From a virus: a DNA stretch of 6,109 nt. Positions within the stretch are counted from its first letter, which is position 1. Each line of letters opens with the position of its first letter. The DNA lies in the IMG/VR virus record IMGVR_UViG_3300045988_001145, positions 1 through 6,109 of that record; one strand, given 5' to 3'. The position numbers were made by a program, and so were the translations under genes. The notes under the pieces are model-generated. The model was not told the DNA's origin. It saw nothing but the letters and a program-made list of their open reading frames with translations, and did not search any database. Below, piece after piece: positions 987 to 5,276 of this stretch.

Positions 987-2666
987 TTAGACCATACGAT
1001 TAAATATATTATTAGCATCATTAAGTTTCTTATGCTTAATCATGTCACGACAAAATGTTGCACTACGGTACCTGAGTTGCTCAAGAAGATGAACCGTCTC
1101 ACGTGAAATATCCGACAAGACATCCGTCTCGCACCCGTTCTGAGGCAACGCAAACATACAATCTGATATTTCCGGGAACCAGGAACGGAGAGCATATGTA
1201 TCTCGTAAACTTTCATAATTTTTTTTCGTCTCATACTCTATTCCCGTTTTAATGATAAAGCTAATACGACCGGAGTAAGCACTAATATCAGAACCGAAGA
1301 GAGGGAGATGCCAATTACGGAAGAATTTATGGACATATAAGAACAGCCTATACAGTTTATTAATATAAGATTCAATATCGACATCACTAGAGCAGTTAAC
1401 AAACCTAGTAAGACACCGAGAAGCATGTAATATAATTTTGTCATCATCAGCAAGAATAGAATTAACCTTAAGATATTTATAATAGGTACGAACAAGATCT
1501 AGAATTGAATCCTGTTTGTAGTCGATGAAGCCGAACCTTGCAATTCTTTGAGGCGTTCGGTGTACAGCGAGAAGAATTCGAGCAATCGAAGTACTATCAT
1601 CATTGCGAACAGACGAGAATCGGGGCAATAAGGTACGGATATACGACATGGGTGGAGTTGACCGAACACTGAGGCCGTTGAAGTTATAGACTCTTCCGTT
1701 AACGACAGAATCGATTTTTTGCTCAATTTGCGCATAAGGGTCTTCGTCTTCAACGTAATCGCAGCCTTTTTCAAAAAATCCAACGGATGCTCTCGATTTG
1801 GGTCTAAACGCGCGGCATGAGCGATATAGGAGGGGAGCAGAGCACAAGCTGTTAACGTAACTCGCAACGTACGACGAAGCTCCACCAGTGGAACGCTGGA
1901 AATCTGAACGACCGAGTGTCCAACTCTTATCGTGACAGTATCGTAAAACCTTGGCGACTTCGTCCGAGTTTGTGCATAATACGAGATGAAAATGCGGGCG
2001 GAAATGGACGGGTCCGTACTCACCCACAGCGTAGAAATGTAACGTTTCATATTTTCCTAGTTGTTTATACAAATGTTTACGTAAGCGTTTAATATAATTC
2101 TGGACATCAACATAGTTCAAGAAGGGAATAAGATTATCACGACCATATTGTTCAGAAACGGGATAATCCGTCTTGTCAACGGCTTGCGTCTTAGCGATAA
2201 AACTACGAATAGCGTCCATACTAAGAAACCAATTATCCTGAACAGGAGAGTACTCCTTGGTTTCACGGTCAAACGGCACAGTACCTTGAACTTGTTCGAA
2301 AAATATATGACGCAACATGGAGTTATCATCACATCGATACTCGGAAACAGGGATATATTGATGATGCTCATGTCCAAAATGAATATCTCCTGAAATACCT
2401 ACGGCATCCTCATATTCACTTTGCAAAACCTTACAATACATAAGAGGAATATGCTCATTGTCAAAAGTAAGAGTTACAAAAAAGGAATACTTGAAAGCAC
2501 TTCCAGCGGTCTTCACGCGCATGGACGCCTTTTTAGCCTTCCTATGAATACAATAATCGCATTGACCACAGTCCACGGCAATGCGTGCACCAGTATATTT
2601 ATTCGTAATAAACGAACGATGCTGACAATGATCAACAGCCTTAAGCAGATCAGGAGAAAATTTCAT
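987..2666 (-). CDS. VP4: Rolling-circle replication initiator protein (Microviridae VP4, phiX174 gpA-like HUH endonuclease), 559 aa
   Basis: It has an N-terminal Cys/His cluster (C14, H16, then CGQCDYCIH at aa 33-41) as in gokushovirus-type VP4. RCR motif I is FVTLTF (aa 63-68, nt 2463..2480). The HUH motif II is HFHLVL (aa 225-230, nt 1977..1994). The double-tyrosine motif III is YVASYVN (Y266 at 1869..1871, Y270 at 1857..1859), which compares with YVAKYVNK in phiX174 gpA. Confidence 0.92.
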   Translation of the reverse strand: MKFSPDLLKAVDHCQHRSFITNKYTGARIAVDCGQCDYCIHRKAKKASMRVKTAGSAFKYSFFVTLTFDNEHIPLMYCKVLQSEYEDAVGISGDIHFGHEHHQYIPVSEYRCDDNSMLRHIFFEQVQGTVPFDRETKEYSPVQDNWFLSMDAIRSFIAKTQAVDKTDYPVSEQYGRDNLIPFLNYVDVQNYIKRLRKHLYKQLGKYETLHFYAVGEYGPVHFRPHFHLVLCTNSDEVAKVLRYCHDKSWTLGRSDFQRSTGGASSYVASYVNSLCSAPLLYRSCRAFRPKSRASVGFFEKGCDYVEDEDPYAQIEQKIDSVVNGRVYNFNGLSVRSTPPMSYIRTLLPRFSSVRNDDSTSIARILLAVHRTPQRIARFGFIDYKQDSILDLVRTYYKYLKVNSILADDDKIILHASRCLTRFVNCSSDVDIESYINKLYRLFLYVHKFFRNWHLPLFGSDISAYSGRISFIIKTGIEYETKKNYESLRDTYALRSWFPEISDCMFALPQNGCETDVLSDISRETVHLLEQLRYRSATFCRDMIKHKKLNDANNIFNRMV

Positions 2667-2668
2667 AA

Positions 2669-2977
2669 CTATTTACGTTTGTCAATCACCTGGCGACGAT
2701 TACGAGCACCAAATGAAATATGAATAAATGTAGGATACAGTATTAACTGATCAAACACATGAACACCATCCGAAAAACTATGAATATATTCAAGTAACCG
2801 GTTATAAGTAGTAGAACCATAAGGTTTTATATCAATAGCCTCTCCAAACAAATGCTGAGATTTAGGTGCACCACCGGAAGCCTCATTCTGTTCGGGAGTA
2901 CGACGAGCACTAGTTATCGTAAAATGCACATTAGAAAGCAGCAAGTGCTCAAGAAAATGCATGAGAGTATAATTCAT
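2669..2977 (-). CDS. Minimal zinc D,D- or L,D-peptidase of the M15 (VanY / Peptidase_M15_3-like) fold; putative endolysin or virion-associated cell-wall hydrolase, 102 aa
   Basis: ITSARRTPEQNEASGGAPKSQHLFGEAIDI matches the family signature S-G-Y-R-x4-N-x3-G-G-x3-S-x-H-x2-G-x-A-x-D. That gives H42-x6-D49 (nt 2831..2854) as metal ligands, and a C-terminal FIHISF (H86, nt 2720..2722) fits the third ligand. Its start is ATGA-coupled to the upstream mini-ORF, and its stop lies 2 nt before the VP4 start. Confidence 0.75.
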   Translation of the reverse strand: MNYTLMHFLEHLLLSNVHFTITSARRTPEQNEASGGAPKSQHLFGEAIDIKPYGSTTYNRLLEYIHSFSDGVHVFDQLILYPTFIHISFGARNRRQVIDKRK

Positions 2978-3057
2978 AATCCGATGGCATTAAGAATATA
3001 ACCTAGAGCGGCGGAAACAGCACCAATCACAATTTTCCAAATATTACTACTTTTCAT
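2974..3057 (-). CDS. 27 aa single-pass membrane peptide (MKSSNIWKIVIGAVSAALGYILNAIGL); candidate holin or membrane partner of the downstream peptidase
   Basis: ATG at 3057..3055 and TGA at 2976..2974, which overlaps the peptidase ATG (ATGA). It has a Lys-containing N-terminus followed by a 19-residue hydrophobic stretch. It fills the 69 nt that would otherwise be non-coding between the 64 aa ORF and the peptidase. It is the 3' end of the listed 76 aa ORF 2974..3204. Off-frame ORFs elsewhere in this genome are also hydrophobic, so this is a weak call. Confidence 0.35.
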   Translation of the reverse strand: MKSSNIWKIVIGAVSAALGYILNAIGL

Positions 3058-3241
3058 CACGGCAAGTTTTAAGTTCAACAAAATCACTCTCTTCTTTAAT
3101 CGAATCCACAATAACAATAAGACCCAACGAAGAAACTCGTTCAGAATAATTTCCAAAACCATCGAGAGAATTAACGATATAAGGCGGAAGAACATCACGA
3201 CCACTAGTTTTTTCTTTGACTGAAATAATGAATTTTTGCAT
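3047..3241 (-). CDS. Hypothetical protein, 64 aa; first gene downstream of the predicted promoter
   Basis: ATG-initiated ORF with a balanced, protein-like composition (MQKFIISVKEKTSGRDVLPPYIVNSLDGFGNYSERVSSLGLIVIVDSIKEESDFVELKTCRDEK). It starts about 50 nt downstream of a Bacteroides-type -7 box. I recognise no family motif. Confidence 0.5.
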   Translation of the reverse strand: MQKFIISVKEKTSGRDVLPPYIVNSLDGFGNYSERVSSLGLIVIVDSIKEESDFVELKTCRDEK

Positions 3242-3292
3242 AATTGTAAAATGTTTAAAATGTTAATAACAGTTGTAACTTCTAACTGGGGG

Positions 3293-3323
3293 CAAATATA
3301 CGAACTATTTTTATAATTCCAAA
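3293..3323 (-). promoter_or_regulatory. Bacteroidota sigma-AB-type promoter: -33 TTTG (3323..3320), 19 nt spacer, -7 TATATTTG (3300..3293, consensus TAnnTTTG)
   Basis: The minus strand reads CTTTTGGAATTATAAAAATAGTTCGTATATTTGCCCC. Both consensus elements are present at canonical spacing, in the only large intergenic region, oriented toward the gene block and about 52 nt upstream of the ATG at 3241. Confidence 0.45.
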
Positions 3324-3518
3324 AGAAATCTATTTTTTCAGGTTCTACCGTAGGGTGTGAGTTGTGCGTTTATGGACAAGAGAGGGGCGAAACCGAGAGG
3401 ATAACTCGGGTTTTCCTTCGGACACAACTAGGGGCTTCGCTTAATTAACAAGTGGATGTATACAGAGGTGTATAGACACGGCAGGTCAGATAGAACCTGC
3501 CTTTGCGCGCCTTCGCGC

Positions 3519-3570
3519 TAAAATACCGGAGCGGGGCGCTCCTATAAGGAAGTCGCTCCGCTCCATTTTT
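3519..3570 (-). terminator. Candidate intrinsic terminator, possibly bidirectional, downstream of VP2
   Basis: A GC-rich stem pairs GGAGCGG (3528..3534) with CCGCTCC (3558..3564); a tighter alternative pairs 3528..3533 with 3537..3542 around a 3 nt loop. On the minus strand it is followed by GGTATTTTA (3527..3519), and on the plus strand by ATTTTT (3565..3570). It sits about 80-125 nt past the VP2 stop and upstream of the promoter. The U-tract on the coding strand is short and interrupted. Confidence 0.35.
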
Positions 3571-3643
3571 AGATCAGGCCCTACGCGGGCGGCGGGTGTA
3601 TATCGCTCAAACGCCGCGATGGGCTTCTAGTCCTGAAGAATGT

Positions 3644-4825
3644 TTACCGACCATTATAAATAGTAGTATTACGAGGTCCATAATCATTACGAAAAATCTG
3701 AGCACCGGGGCGCATAGCTCCGATTATATTACCAGCACCTTGGACAATACGGACGCCGTAGTCAATAGCGTTACGTAAGCCATAAGACTTAGTTTCCTTC
3801 TGTTTCTCCTTAGCAGACCATCTATAATAATCACGCAAAGCTTCATCTTGCTGAAGCTTGCCTTTCTTAATAGCATTTATATTTTTAAAATCCCAAGAAG
3901 AAGATAGGCCAGAAGCACGATTAGCATGAATATTAGCGTAGATAAGAGAATCAGCAGTCTCTTCAGCTACCCTGTTCTGAATCTTAAGGCCATTAGTCTC
4001 AACAGATAGCTTAACAGCTTTGGCCATCTCAGTTTTATACTGTGCCTCAGTAAGAGCACCTTGTGCATACAAATTAGCCAAAGTTTGACCTTTAATAAAC
4101 AAATCAGCCTGCTGTTGCTCGTCAAGGTACTTATTCAATACCTGTTGGGCCTCAGAATCAAGTAAAATCTGTGCCTCTTGAGCCGACGTAAGACGACCTG
4201 CAAACTCCATATTCTTAAGTTCCTGATACTCCTTAGACTGATCCAACAGAGCAGAACGTCTACCAGTAGAAGAATTCCAATAACCTGACTGGCCAATACC
4301 AATATTACGATAATTCGTATCACCGAGAATCTGTTGCATCTTATACGGAGTAAGAGAAGCATTCTGTTCAGCGTTAATCATAGCAGCACGAGCCTGAGCC
4401 ATAGAAGCAAGAGAAGAACCAACATCAGAAAAGTCGGGGCGAAATGCCTGAAGACTAGGAGAAGTAGCAGCAGAAGCAGCAACACCACCTGAGGCAGGAG
4501 ATTTAGAAACACCAGCACCAACAGAAGAACCAATATATGGATTAAGACCACGAGATACCATAGCCGATGGGCTGTTATACTCATTATTCTTGTCCCACAT
4601 AGATTCCTGCCAATTACGCTGTTTCTCAGCTTCGGCAGCATTGAAAGCATTATTCTCACGGTTAATCTGTAAATTAGTATCGTTCACTTTATTCTGAGAA
4701 GCAGAACCAATAGCATTGCCAGCAAGAGATGCACCAGCAGCAATAATACCACCAAGCACAAGCGGAGCAATATGTTTTTCAGAGTGCCCCATTAAGGGGC
4801 TCTCTCCAATATCGTAGAATCTCAT
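3644..4825 (-). CDS. VP2: Microviridae minor capsid / DNA pilot protein VP2 (phiX174 H-like function), 393 aa
   Basis: It has a Gly/Ala-rich hydrophobic N-terminal segment (IAPLVLGGIIAAGASLAGNAIGSAS). This is followed by NAFNAAEAEKQRNWQESMWDKNNEYNSPSAMVSRGLNPY, which matches the conserved VP2 core as I remember it (N-x-x-x-A-x-x-Q-R-x-W-Q-E ... Y-N-S-P ... G-L-N-P). The remainder is long, Q/A-rich and coiled-coil-like. Its position after VP1 and the small acidic ORF fits, and its start is ATGA-coupled to that ORF. Confidence 0.85.
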   Translation of the reverse strand: MRFYDIGESPLMGHSEKHIAPLVLGGIIAAGASLAGNAIGSASQNKVNDTNLQINRENNAFNAAEAEKQRNWQESMWDKNNEYNSPSAMVSRGLNPYIGSSVGAGVSKSPASGGVAASAATSPSLQAFRPDFSDVGSSLASMAQARAAMINAEQNASLTPYKMQQILGDTNYRNIGIGQSGYWNSSTGRRSALLDQSKEYQELKNMEFAGRLTSAQEAQILLDSEAQQVLNKYLDEQQQADLFIKGQTLANLYAQGALTEAQYKTEMAKAVKLSVETNGLKIQNRVAEETADSLIYANIHANRASGLSSSWDFKNINAIKKGKLQQDEALRDYYRWSAKEKQKETKSYGLRNAIDYGVRIVQGAGNIIGAMRPGAQIFRNDYGPRNTTIYNGR

Positions 4826-5265
4826 TGAACAGAAGAGTCAGGGGCGGACGACGAATCGGGCGCTGACTGTTGCTCTGCCAACATTGCTTCGGCATAGGCC
4901 GTTAATTCGGATTTCTGACTAGCCAATTCTTTCAGAACTGCCTGCCGTTCCGACATTGTCTGGCAATGACGCGAGATAACACAATTAAAGCGTTCCTCAT
5001 CAGTCATATTATCCATCAAAGTAGACTGAGTAGGATGCATCTGGGCAAGAATGTTATTCACATTCATATCACCAAGCAAACGTCGATACTTCTCTTGGTT
5101 AAGAAGAATGGAAGTTATATCATTCTGAATAAATGAACCATCTTCCAATTCATCAAACTGAACTGAATCAAATACAGATTCCTGATACACGGGATGACCT
5201 TCTACATCAGTAGGGATACCAATAGGGTCATCATCAATCTGAGTGGGATAAGCAAAATCTCTCAT
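4822..5265 (-). CDS. Acidic hypothetical protein, 147 aa from the ATG at 5265 (149 aa if the TTG at 5271 is used); possible VP3-like internal scaffolding protein
   Basis: The ORF fills the VP1-VP2 gap exactly, and its stop overlaps the VP2 ATG. It is strongly acidic: about 26 D/E against 9 K/R by my count. The start listed in the track at 5271 is TTG; the first ATG is at 5265..5263. The scaffold role is inferred from position and charge only. Confidence 0.7.
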   Translation of the reverse strand: MRDFAYPTQIDDDPIGIPTDVEGHPVYQESVFDSVQFDELEDGSFIQNDITSILLNQEKYRRLLGDMNVNNILAQMHPTQSTLMDNMTDEERFNCVISRHCQTMSERQAVLKELASQKSELTAYAEAMLAEQQSAPDSSSAPDSSVQ

Positions 5266-5276
5266 AATCAATCATT

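Follow-up and report, generated by a model that had tools for sequence, protein, structure and literature searches.

A strongly constrained 27-residue membrane peptide coupled to a leaderless M15 peptidase in a microvirus: a possible lysis component

Introduction

An M15 peptidase that lacks an export signal, encoded in the small genome of a single-stranded DNA phage, raises the question of how such an enzyme might gain access to the cell wall. To our knowledge, lysis by microviruses outside the phiX174 group has never been worked out experimentally; such microviruses are among the most abundant phages of the mammalian gut. Since 2012 the literature has treated the peptidase as a probable endolysin; without a leader, though, such an enzyme has no way of its own to the wall, and in many close relatives it is missing.

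M15 peptidases in microviruses were reported as probable endolysins by Roux et al. 2012 (PMC3394797) and in later papers, and M15_3 peptidases of Microviridae also feature in Kirchberger et al. 2022 (PMC9239249) and in work on Occultatumvirinae roseophages (PMC11499846), which notes peptidase-less subgroups in another microvirus subfamily. The first-pass annotation of the present sequence had mentioned such ORFs as sporadically noted; they have indeed been reported, and are established literature rather than scattered sightings. The published enzymes belong to the same PF08291 family, come from gut Alpavirinae-type genomes, and have been described as horizontally acquired proposed endolysins that vary in presence and absence; the enzyme considered here is a truncated 102-aa form, unlike those published. 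Its GenBank relatives are already annotated ‘peptidase’. A membrane-spanning ORF of 27–30 aa, on the other hand, is absent from the descriptions in all three papers and from the GenBank records. The peptidase is thus already known and the peptide is new: it is not annotated in GenBank relatives, and no paper describing it was found, in keeping with the initial remark that no coupled membrane partner was known.

Annotation pipelines have overlooked this peptide gene, which is under stronger constraint than the enzyme and occurs in genomes both with and without it. Should the peptide prove lytic, no smaller phage lysis protein would be known, and it would offer a new membrane-active scaffold against Bacteroidota; otherwise it would still be a conserved core gene that present-day microvirus annotation lacks throughout.

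Genome and transcription unit

The window, i.e. the whole stretch of 6,109 nt that was analysed, represents the circular genome of a gut microvirus, 6054 nt long, plus a 55-nt terminal redundancy. All of its genes lie on the minus strand, and Pfam and PHROG profiles identify those for Rep/VP4, pilot and capsid proteins, which bears out the assignment to ssDNA microviruses made from the letters alone. An Rfam scan of the window gave no credible RNA family. A single scan of reference genome contigs for the host had as its sole match an unrelated Woeseiaceae; evidence on the host comes from the promoter motif described below, prophage flanks and the literature, and the host is probably diderm. 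A prophage was seen on ENA contig k119_54725.

Three short genes precede VP4/Rep. The first is a 64-aa ORF (3047..3241, minus strand) of unassigned function, without a Pfam or PHROG match; it is conserved whether the peptidase is present or absent, and has coding periodicity in its own frame (0.43/0.23/0.52). It overlaps by 11 nt the start of a mini-ORF for a 27-aa peptide (2974..3057, minus), which is followed by the 102-aa peptidase (2669..2977, minus). The stop codon of the peptide (TGA) and the start codon of the peptidase (ATG) share an ATGA overlap (2974..2977, minus), which is a signal for coupling by termination and reinitiation. This overlap is kept in 93/93 peptidase-bearing type-A genomes, type A being the lineage of the window, in which the peptide lies upstream of the peptidase; one relative has GTGA instead of ATGA. 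Both ORFs and their overlap lie exactly where the first-pass annotation had placed them. VP4/Rep (987..2666, minus; Pfam PF23343, PHROG 942) begins 2 nt past the peptidase stop.

About 50 nt upstream of the 64-aa ORF lies a Bacteroides-type promoter-like motif, TTTG-N19-TATATTTG (3293..3323, minus). It is the single match within the window. Of 128 distinct relatives, 84 have it equally far upstream, with changes at the ‘nn’ positions only. The consensus is reportedly that set out for Bacteroides promoters by Bayley et al. in 2000. The motif is probably the promoter for all three short genes.

A truncated M15 peptidase

The 102-aa product is a leaderless M15_3 zinc peptidase. It carries the motifs SQHLFGEAID (with H42 and D49) and FIHISF (with H86), and scores 39 bits against Pfam PF08291 (Peptidase_M15_3; E=9.5e-10), above the cut-off of 23.2, which upholds the M15 assignment originally made from these two motifs. 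It also matches PHROG 894, ‘endolysin’ (1.2e-16), and for its relatives the PF08291 assignment was available precomputed. When the family profile was compared with PDB sequences, 1lbu was found at 3.1e-10. H42 and D49 align to H154 and D161 of 1lbu and to H66 and D73 of T5 endolysin, and R26 aligns to R138; with the family profile, all three ligand positions align to the H..D..H of Desert hedgehog-N. In the solved structures, the aligned residues are the Zn ligands. The proposed zinc site of H42, D49 and H86 (codons 2852-2854, 2831-2833 and 2720-2722, minus) thus holds up at the level of alignment, in which the enzyme has both the triad H-x6-D...H and the substrate arginine of SxxR. Across 60 diverse homologues, S23, R26, H42, D49, D76, H86 and S88 are invariant.

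The enzyme is predicted to have the LAS (Hedgehog/DD-peptidase) fold. An AF2 model built on a deeper alignment reaches a pLDDT of 91.7, and the top 35 Foldseek matches are nearly all LAS proteins, the best being 1lbu, LysECD7, VanY, the T5 and RB49 endolysins, and ChiX. The structural match is moderate: 1lbu has E=1.9e-3 with probability 1.00 and a TM-score of 0.59, LysECD7 a TM-score of 0.61, and there are zero matches at E<=1e-3. This model replaced an earlier one made from close relatives only, whose shallow alignment gave a pLDDT of 84.6 and unconvincing Foldseek results.

The canonical catalytic domain is incomplete. The enzyme covers only positions 43-90 of the 108 in PF08291, and it lacks some 40 N-terminal residues, the FxLxEF segment among them, that canonical homologues of 130-147 aa possess. 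This short form is under purifying selection (dN/dS 0.20). Its maximum Kyte-Doolittle 19-residue mean (KD19) is 1.04, and there is therefore no signal or SAR-like segment, as first noted from the translation; in the AF2 model the N-terminus is a helix within the fold rather than a SAR domain. Without a signal or transmembrane segment, the enzyme needs a route across the membrane.

A constrained membrane peptide

The mini-ORF encodes the peptide MKSSNIWKIVIGAVSAALGYILNAIGL, identified by reading of the sequence, KD19 and codon constraint. Its cationic N-terminus (residues 1-8, net charge +2) is followed by a single transmembrane helix (residues 9-27, coded by 2977-3033, minus) that has a KD19 of 2.01 and reaches the C-terminus; the charged N-terminus and 19-residue helix of the original description are thus both there. 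The peptide fits the general description of a holin, a small integral membrane protein that has charged termini and one or more transmembrane domains; its lack of a hydrophilic C-terminal tail is atypical.

Conservation in relatives, which had been named as one of the checks, speaks clearly for a real gene. The mini-ORF is intact in ~70/70 peptidase-retrieved relatives. In 67 relatives, retrieved via the peptidase and not via the peptide, codon-position entropy is 0.21/0.00/0.73, i.e. second positions are invariant, and dN/dS is 0.055 in the mini-ORF's own frame as compared with 1.2 and 7.2 in the other two. Constraint is stronger on the peptide than on the peptidase (0.055 vs 0.20). The mini-ORF is a genuine, strongly constrained gene for a single-pass membrane peptide.

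The usual minimum length for gene calling exceeds 27 aa. The peptide has no Pfam or PHROG match and belongs to no known holin family. Among 50,697 phage records, tblastn with the type-A peptide finds matches in 35 microviruses only; the type-B peptide (see the next section) finds nothing. In GenBank, the type-A peptide is confined to microviruses and is never annotated as a CDS, and three ‘peptidase’ CDSs are over-extended across the mini-ORF.

Several other gene models were considered and rejected. The mini-ORF frame is open upstream, where it overprints the 64-aa ORF, and could encode a longer product of 73-76 aa with three hydrophobic segments; this was rejected because the upstream stretch shows the periodicity of the 64-aa frame and not that of the mini-ORF. 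The extension is moreover interrupted in two relatives (L035, L062) and in type-B genomes. A fusion of peptide and peptidase by frameshift or readthrough, which would give the enzyme a SAR-like anchor, is ruled out by type-B variants with two stops or out-of-frame spacing, and type A lacks a slippery site; the 125-aa ‘peptidase’ CDSs in GenBank are 5' over-extensions in the other frame. Derivation from, or mimicry of, the N-terminal helix of the VP2 pilot protein, with which the peptide shares NAIG, was not significant by shuffling (p=0.21).

Distribution of peptide and peptidase

At least three groups of microviruses pair an M15 peptidase with an equivalent peptide of 27-30 aa, which lies before or after the enzyme. 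In type B, whose VP4 is only 27% identical to that of the window, the peptide is upstream in 48/48 genomes and again the more constrained partner (dN/dS 0.05 vs 0.21 for the peptidase). Type C has a different, long-form peptidase clade with the peptide downstream, overlapping the 3' end of the enzyme gene; for this peptide pS is 0.63 and pN 0.13. Searches of IMG/VR for type-C relatives with the peptidase, a peptidase alignment and a peptide pattern returned nothing. In MT135399, Dulem virus 261 and the D_HF4_111 group, peptide and peptidase are 150-600 nt apart; adjacency to a leaderless endolysin, as expected for a holin, is found in types A, B and C and not in these genomes.

In nine complete-looking close relatives the peptide is intact and the whole genome is devoid of a peptidase; they share nearly identical capsid and pilot genes with peptidase-bearing relatives. 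In these nine, VP4 follows the mini-ORF after a common spacer of ~52 nt. The genomes are scattered in VP4 and local distance analyses yet have this one spacer, which points to recombination of a presence/absence allele. Peptide without enzyme accounts for ~9% of type-A genomes, and for 6 of 77 in an unbiased set. Since the peptide in peptidase-less genomes is under purifying selection (dN/dS 0.08), it has a function independent of the enzyme, and the enzyme is dispensable. Together with the 150-600 nt separations, the peptidase-less relatives mark the peptide as a core gene in its own right that does more than assist the enzyme.

The converse situation is rare. Among ~190 type-A and type-B genomes there is one exception (L282) in which a short-form peptidase is kept without an intact peptide, the peptide gene being broken; in another genome (L218) both functions are absent and the peptide gene has decayed. 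Dependence is thus asymmetric: the short peptidase almost never occurs without the peptide, while the peptide occurs without the enzyme. The conserved coupling and this near-absence of peptidase without peptide suggest that the enzyme depends on the peptide. Both genes are real and under purifying selection, they are coupled, the M15/LAS enzyme has no export signal, and the pairs recur in several lineages.

A possible role in lysis and its alternatives

The explanation that we favour, with a probability of roughly 0.45, is that the peptide is the membrane-acting component of lysis and, in addition, lets the leaderless peptidase reach the wall. The 64-aa ORF, the peptide and the peptidase would be expressed as one transcription unit behind the Bacteroides-type promoter. 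The peptide would insert in the inner membrane with its N-terminus inside, and a small/polar helix face (G12, A16, G19, N23, G26) may serve for self-association or for docking onto a host membrane protein. We infer a role in lysis that is late in timing: the peptide would compromise the membrane late in infection, and the enzyme, its synthesis tied to that of the peptide by the ATGA overlap in peptidase-bearing genomes, would be released through the peptide-induced lesion to reach peptidoglycan. By cutting stem peptides or cross-links there, it would speed or complete lysis. The peptide would be the core component, and the peptidase an accessory that is gained or lost.

The holin-like partner originally proposed is partly borne out: a constrained and coupled membrane peptide is there; it belongs to no holin family and persists without the peptidase, and its holin function is something that we infer. 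Several points count against the favoured explanation. Adjacency may only reflect that a single interval, that between VP2 and VP4, is permissive for insertions. We know of no characterised holin that is not far larger than 27 aa, nor of any single 19-residue helix that releases a 12-kDa protein. The genome with broken peptide and intact enzyme, and that with neither function, also weigh against it, as does the fact that no spanin-like gene was noticed in passing although the host is probably diderm. A bolder form of the same idea would make all the 27-30-aa peptides an Alpavirinae-type lysis effector, sufficient alone without peptidase, a gate for the truncated leaderless M15 endolysin when that is present, and the smallest of phage lysis proteins; in this generality it is somewhat unlikely. 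If it were to hold, these peptides would represent a hybrid between single-gene and holin-endolysin lysis, and a previously unannotated gene family.

The foremost alternative, which we regard as rather unlikely, retains lysis and separates the two proteins: the peptide would be an autonomous single-gene effector that either blocks a membrane step of wall synthesis, as do phiX174 E and LysM, or triggers autolysis, as does MS2 L, and the peptidase would be mechanistically independent, acting after envelope failure or on neighbouring cells and debris. Microviruses and leviviruses provide precedent for lysis by a small transmembrane protein. The purifying selection on the peptide in peptidase-less genomes (dN/dS 0.08), its presence in several lineages at variable distance from the peptidase, and the peptidase-less subgroups of another microvirus subfamily (PMC11499846) all suit such an effector, and the conserved small/polar helix face with N23/Q26 might, from its sequence, bind a host membrane protein. 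It is harder to reconcile with the conserved translational coupling and with a short peptidase that is nearly never without the peptide; a leaderless enzyme with no membrane route would contribute little before lysis, and no homology to E, LysM or L was detected.

A membrane function unrelated to lysis, such as superinfection exclusion or the anchoring of replication or assembly, would liken the peptide to the non-essential phiX174 K, with the peptidase as its neighbour because only the VP2-VP4 interval tolerates insertions. Such a role would fit a core peptide with a facultative peptidase, the two different peptidase clades, which flank the peptide on one side or the other or are separated from it by hundreds of nt, and the decayed peptide gene in L218. 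Against this stand the exact 4-nt ATGA coupling in 93/93 genomes, the overlap of the type-C peptide with the 3' end of its enzyme, and the enzyme's need for a membrane-breaching partner, for which a strict architecture filter found no other candidate in the genome; similarity to the pilot N-terminal helix, at p=0.21, lends no help. A role of this kind is unlikely. Most improbable of all is a role of the peptidase at entry, an alternative raised in the first-pass annotation: as part of the virion it would breach the wall for DNA delivery, and the peptide would not be its partner. M15 or other peptidoglycan hydrolases do occur in the virions of some dsDNA phages; accessory enzymes are not known to be packaged in T=1 microvirus capsids. 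Outside the microviruses, the nearest homologues are annotated as endolysins and lie within holin/spanin cassettes. Close relatives whose capsid and pilot genes are nearly identical can dispense with the enzyme, and an entry function is difficult to reconcile with this.

Relationship to known lysis systems

Peptides of this size can act on membranes: the type I toxins TisB (29 aa), DinQ (27 aa) and Hok, which are single-helix inner-membrane peptides of ~27-30 aa, show that peptides this small can depolarise cells. They are parts of chromosomal toxin-antitoxin systems, not phage lysis genes, and have no sequence similarity to the peptide.

The single-gene lysis proteins phiX174 E, levivirus LysM (37 aa) and MS2 L are likewise very small single-pass membrane proteins from tiny genomes. 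Like the phages that encode these, the peptidase-less relatives would lyse without a muralytic enzyme of their own; lack of such an enzyme, which defines single-gene lysis, applies to those nine genomes only and not to the window, where the peptide is coupled to one. Unlike the single-gene proteins, the peptide is encoded by a separate ORF, which is not overprinted within another gene and overlaps its neighbours by only 11 and 4 nt. A holin needs an endolysin in order to lyse the cell, and the peptide does not strictly co-occur with one, nine genomes having the peptide only.

The LAS fold is shared with the Serratia ChiW/ChiX system (a holin-like protein with an M15 L-Ala-D-Glu endopeptidase) and with the T5, RB49 and LysECD7 endolysins; for the corresponding Foldseek matches 5opz, 2mxz, 23ri and 8q2g, TM-scores are 0.41-0.61 at a sequence identity of only 14-26%. 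ChiX and the T5, RB49 and LysECD7 endolysins are M15 enzymes that have no leader and rely on a membrane partner; in these systems the partner is a holin-like protein of normal size with several TM segments, unlike the 27-aa peptide.

Closer in sequence are the homologous M15 endolysins of the dsDNA phages Siara (Stenotrophomonas) and Suba (Xanthomonas), with 41-46% identity over ~80 residues, which sit in holin/spanin lysis cassettes. No spanin or antiholin was noticed in passing in the window, unlike in these cassettes. The arrangement is otherwise similar, a small membrane ORF being translationally coupled to a leaderless enzyme; in Suba, a 39-aa putative holin, ‘holin’ being only an annotation, overlaps the endolysin by 4 nt. 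At 27 aa the peptide is smaller than the Siara and Suba holins and shows no similarity to them in sequence; it persists without the enzyme, and the genome that encodes it is ssDNA. The peptidase of the window and the Siara/Suba-type endolysins also have in common a C-terminal SFGxRNRRQV motif.

A conserved membrane peptide gene upstream of the peptidase

Directly upstream of the peptidase gene lies a 27-aa mini-ORF (2974-3057, minus strand), encoding MKSSNIWKIVIGAVSAALGYILNAIGL; its stop codon, TGA, shares an ATGA with the ATG of the gene that follows. That gene, a 102-aa ORF (2669-2977, minus strand), includes the motifs SQHLFGEAID and FIHISF. Both ORFs and their overlap are exactly as described in the first-pass annotation, which proposed a very small holin coupled to an M15 endolysin. 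Kyte-Doolittle hydropathy averages 2.01 over the 19 residues 9-27 of the peptide.

The mini-ORF is a conserved and newly recognised gene, whose product is a small membrane peptide. Among 76 IMG/VR loci obtained by the peptidase alone, the peptide playing no part in retrieval, it is present with its 4-nt overlap in every locus having upstream sequence. In 67 of these loci, the stretch of the mini-ORF free of any overlap shows codon-position entropies of 0.21/0.00/0.73; dN/dS is 0.055 when read in the ORF's own frame, against 1.2 and 7.2 in the two alternative frames. The proposed partner is therefore intact and under purifying selection, and is more strongly constrained than the enzyme (dN/dS 0.20). 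Its core, IGAVSAALGY(I/V)LN, is kept in Dulem viruses 226, 238, 241 and 243 and in Microvirus mar56, in which the enzyme is 50-66% identical.

The peptide is nowhere annotated as a CDS in GenBank relatives. In PP511396, PP511332 and PP511322 (L079, L081 and L082; Dulem viruses 226, 238 and 243), CDSs labelled 'peptidase' or 'hypothetical protein' are over-extended across it; these 125-aa CDSs begin 63 nt too early, the extra part being out-of-frame read-through of the mini-ORF region. A tblastn search of 50,697 phage records found the peptide in 35 microviruses only, and literature searches brought up no account of it.

The M15 peptidase

The M15 assignment of the enzyme holds. It matches Pfam PF08291 (Peptidase_M15_3) at 39 bits (curated threshold 23.2; E=9.5e-10) and PHROG 894 'endolysin' at 1.2e-16. 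A profile from 60 diverse homologues matches the Streptomyces Zn DD-peptidase 1lbu at 3.1e-10, and its H..D..H positions align with those of Hedgehog-N; with a smaller profile, H42 and D49 align with H154 and D161 of 1lbu and with H66 and D73 of T5 endolysin, in keeping with the Zn ligands first suggested. Invariant in all 60 homologues are S23, R26, N31, S40, H42, G45, A47, D49, D76, Q77, H86, S88 and R94. An AlphaFold model built from close relatives alone was of middling quality and matched no known structure convincingly; the model on a deeper alignment reached a pLDDT of 91.7, and its best 35 Foldseek matches are almost exclusively LAS-fold proteins, including 1lbu (probability 1.00, TM-score 0.59), LysECD7 (TM-score 0.61), VanY, the T5 and RB49 endolysins, ChiX and Hedgehog-N.

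The enzyme is a short form, in which about 40 N-terminal residues of the 131-147-aa homologues are absent; its dN/dS indicates purifying selection. As anticipated, a signal or SAR-like segment is missing: its Kyte-Doolittle 19-residue mean never exceeds 1.04.

This half of the finding is already known. M15_3 peptidases were reported in 11 human-associated Alpavirinae and Gokushovirinae genomes by Roux et al. 2012 (PMC3394797), who favoured acquisition by horizontal transfer and suggested that the proteins act as endolysins. Kirchberger et al. 2022 (PMC9239249) placed peptidases among lysis-associated accessory genes and described a recombined peptidase region of ~700 nt common to two distant microviruses. 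Cultured Occultatumvirinae carry an M15 gene, which is absent from some subgroups (PMC11499846), and 'peptidase' is already annotated in GenBank relatives, among them the Dulem viruses and MG945488 (82% nucleotide identity).

Recurrence beside M15 peptidases in other lineages

Comparable peptides occur in two further microvirus groups, types B and C, the window's own lineage being type A. Type B has the gene order of the window, with 27% identity to its VP4, 39% to its VP1 and 48-51% to its peptidase. Here MKSETKSKIWSAIIAAAVSLLTSIAQIFS stands directly 5' of a short peptidase in 48/48 genomes, with a peptide dN/dS of 0.05; in one of them (L282, IMGVR_UViG_3300045988_021117) the peptide gene is stopped at codon 4 and the peptidase is intact. 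Type C includes MG945328 and MG945336, the pair cited by Kirchberger et al. (PMC9239249) for the recombined region, and three pig microviruses. Its peptidase is a different, long-form protein of 131 aa, followed by M(L)TKE[QK]L[NT][KR]ISN[AG][LI]CALISA[VI]CAA[LI]SYF[FL][SN]; the ORF for this peptide uses a different frame and begins within the peptidase gene, at its 3' end (pS 0.63, pN 0.13).

All types share one design: Met, a cationic head of 7-10 residues, and a helix of ~19-21 residues with many Gly, Ala, Ser or Cys and a central [VIL]S[AL], at the end of which the chain terminates. A peptide of this design also lies 150-600 nt from the peptidase in MT135399, Dulem virus 261 and the D_HF4_111 group; none was found in gokushovirus WZ-2015a, mar43 or bajarodmic virus 151. 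Parallels exist in dsDNA phages. Xanthomonas phage Suba (LR743530) has a 39-aa ORF labelled 'putative holin' (L300:1729-1848), MMPDDLKAVLPPNFVKQFGIGLFIASNVAMILKQSRSEK, and, with a 4-nt overlap as in the window, a homologous M15 endolysin of 139 aa; in phage Siara, the homologous endolysin lies within a holin/antiholin/spanin cassette.

The peptide without the peptidase

A second IMG/VR scan, with the peptide pattern as query, returned 103 loci: 93 have the peptidase at the ATGA overlap, one is cut by the contig end, and nine (L091, L123, L127, L135, L142, L144, L156, L164 and L170) have no peptidase anywhere, nor did an HMM search of these nine genomes detect one. Their VP4 is 81-86% identical to that of the window, and the peptide is intact, with a dN/dS of 0.08; this value tends to be too low, since the pattern used for retrieval fixes the core residues. 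Retrieval by the neighbouring 64-aa ORF, which is unbiased toward the peptide, gave 77 evaluable genomes. Peptidase and intact peptide gene occur together in 70 of these (two with GTG starts), and six have an intact peptide gene and no peptidase. The remaining genome (L218, IMGVR_UViG_3300045988_000119) lacks the peptidase and has a decayed peptide gene (~3085-3170), in which Gly has become Asp twice, 7 nt are duplicated and the start codon is GTG.

The relation is asymmetric: the short peptidase essentially never occurs without the peptide (one exception in ~190 genomes), and the peptide does well without the peptidase. L218 and L282 are the single exceptions to the two co-occurrence rules; they are either true exceptions or defective genomes. 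The peptidase-less genomes all have a common homologous spacer of ~52 nt and a C-terminus ending ...SAIGV, yet are scattered among peptidase-bearing ones by VP4 and local distances; the peptidase thus behaves as a recombining presence/absence allele.

Possible roles in lysis

The original holin-endolysin reading stands as regards a conserved, coupled membrane peptide, but the persistence of that peptide in nine peptidase-less genomes counts against it. The simplest mechanism that fits, to which we give a probability of roughly 0.45, is that the peptide would be the membrane-acting lysis component of these phages, and the leaderless enzyme an accessory reaching the wall by way of the peptide-induced lesion. 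What is new is the partner, a holin-like or single-gene-lysis-like membrane protein so small as to be without precedent in ssDNA phages.

A less probable candidate is that the peptide causes lysis autonomously, as a single gene in the manner of phiX174 E or MS2 L, and that the enzyme does not depend on it. It is rather unlikely that the peptide is a membrane protein unrelated to lysis, adjacent to the peptidase solely for the reason that insertions are tolerated nowhere but in the VP2-VP4 interval. That the peptidase is a virion-associated entry enzyme seems highly improbable.

Genome context and host

The window holds a complete circular microvirus genome (6054 nt), its ends redundant over 55 nt, and every gene is on the minus strand. 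The gene order begins with VP1, which wraps the window ends, and runs through a VP3-like gene (4822-5271), VP2/pilot (3644-4825), a GC-rich non-coding region (3242-3643), a 64-aa ORF, the peptide gene and the peptidase gene to VP4/Rep (987-2666). The acidic 64-aa ORF (3047-3241, minus strand) overlaps the peptide start by 11 nt. It has neither Pfam nor PHROG match, is kept in all type-A genomes with or without peptidase, and may form one functional unit with peptide and peptidase. By eye, type-B genomes have a possible, weakly similar counterpart.

A Bacteroides-type promoter motif, TTTG-N19-TATATTTG (TTTG-N19-TAnnTTTG), lies at 3293-3323 (minus strand), 50 nt 5' of the 64-aa ORF. It is the single match in the whole window and is found at unchanged distance in 84/128 relatives, variation being confined to the unspecified 'nn' bases; this suggests a host among the Bacteroidota. 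On a 56-kb contig from a gut metagenome (L301:7343-7737), a microvirus 81% identical to the window lies integrated beside sulfatase, GH3 and acetyl-CoA hydrolase genes. Together, motif and flanking genes suggest that the host is probably a diderm member of the Bacteroidota. Homology with the integrated relative starts at ~3450, so an attachment (dif-like) site probably lies within the non-coding region, and the phage is probably temperate. This is consistent with the Xer/dif-type lysogeny described in the literature for Bacteroidales microviruses.

A possible overprinted gene in VP4

The VP4 +1 frame (1040-2377, minus strand) contains only 9 stops, where synonymous shuffling predicts 15 +/- 2.4; the +2 frame has 75. 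A 183-aa ORF in this frame (1499-2050, minus strand) coincides with a drop in VP4 third-position variability to 0.30-0.33. Open counterparts of 175-176 aa occur in Dulem virus 226 (58% identity) and in type B, the latter at 28-32% identity (E down to 2e-14) while VP4 is only 27% identical. The ORF may, on these sequence comparisons, be an overprinted gene, comparable to phiX174 gene B, which is located inside gene A.
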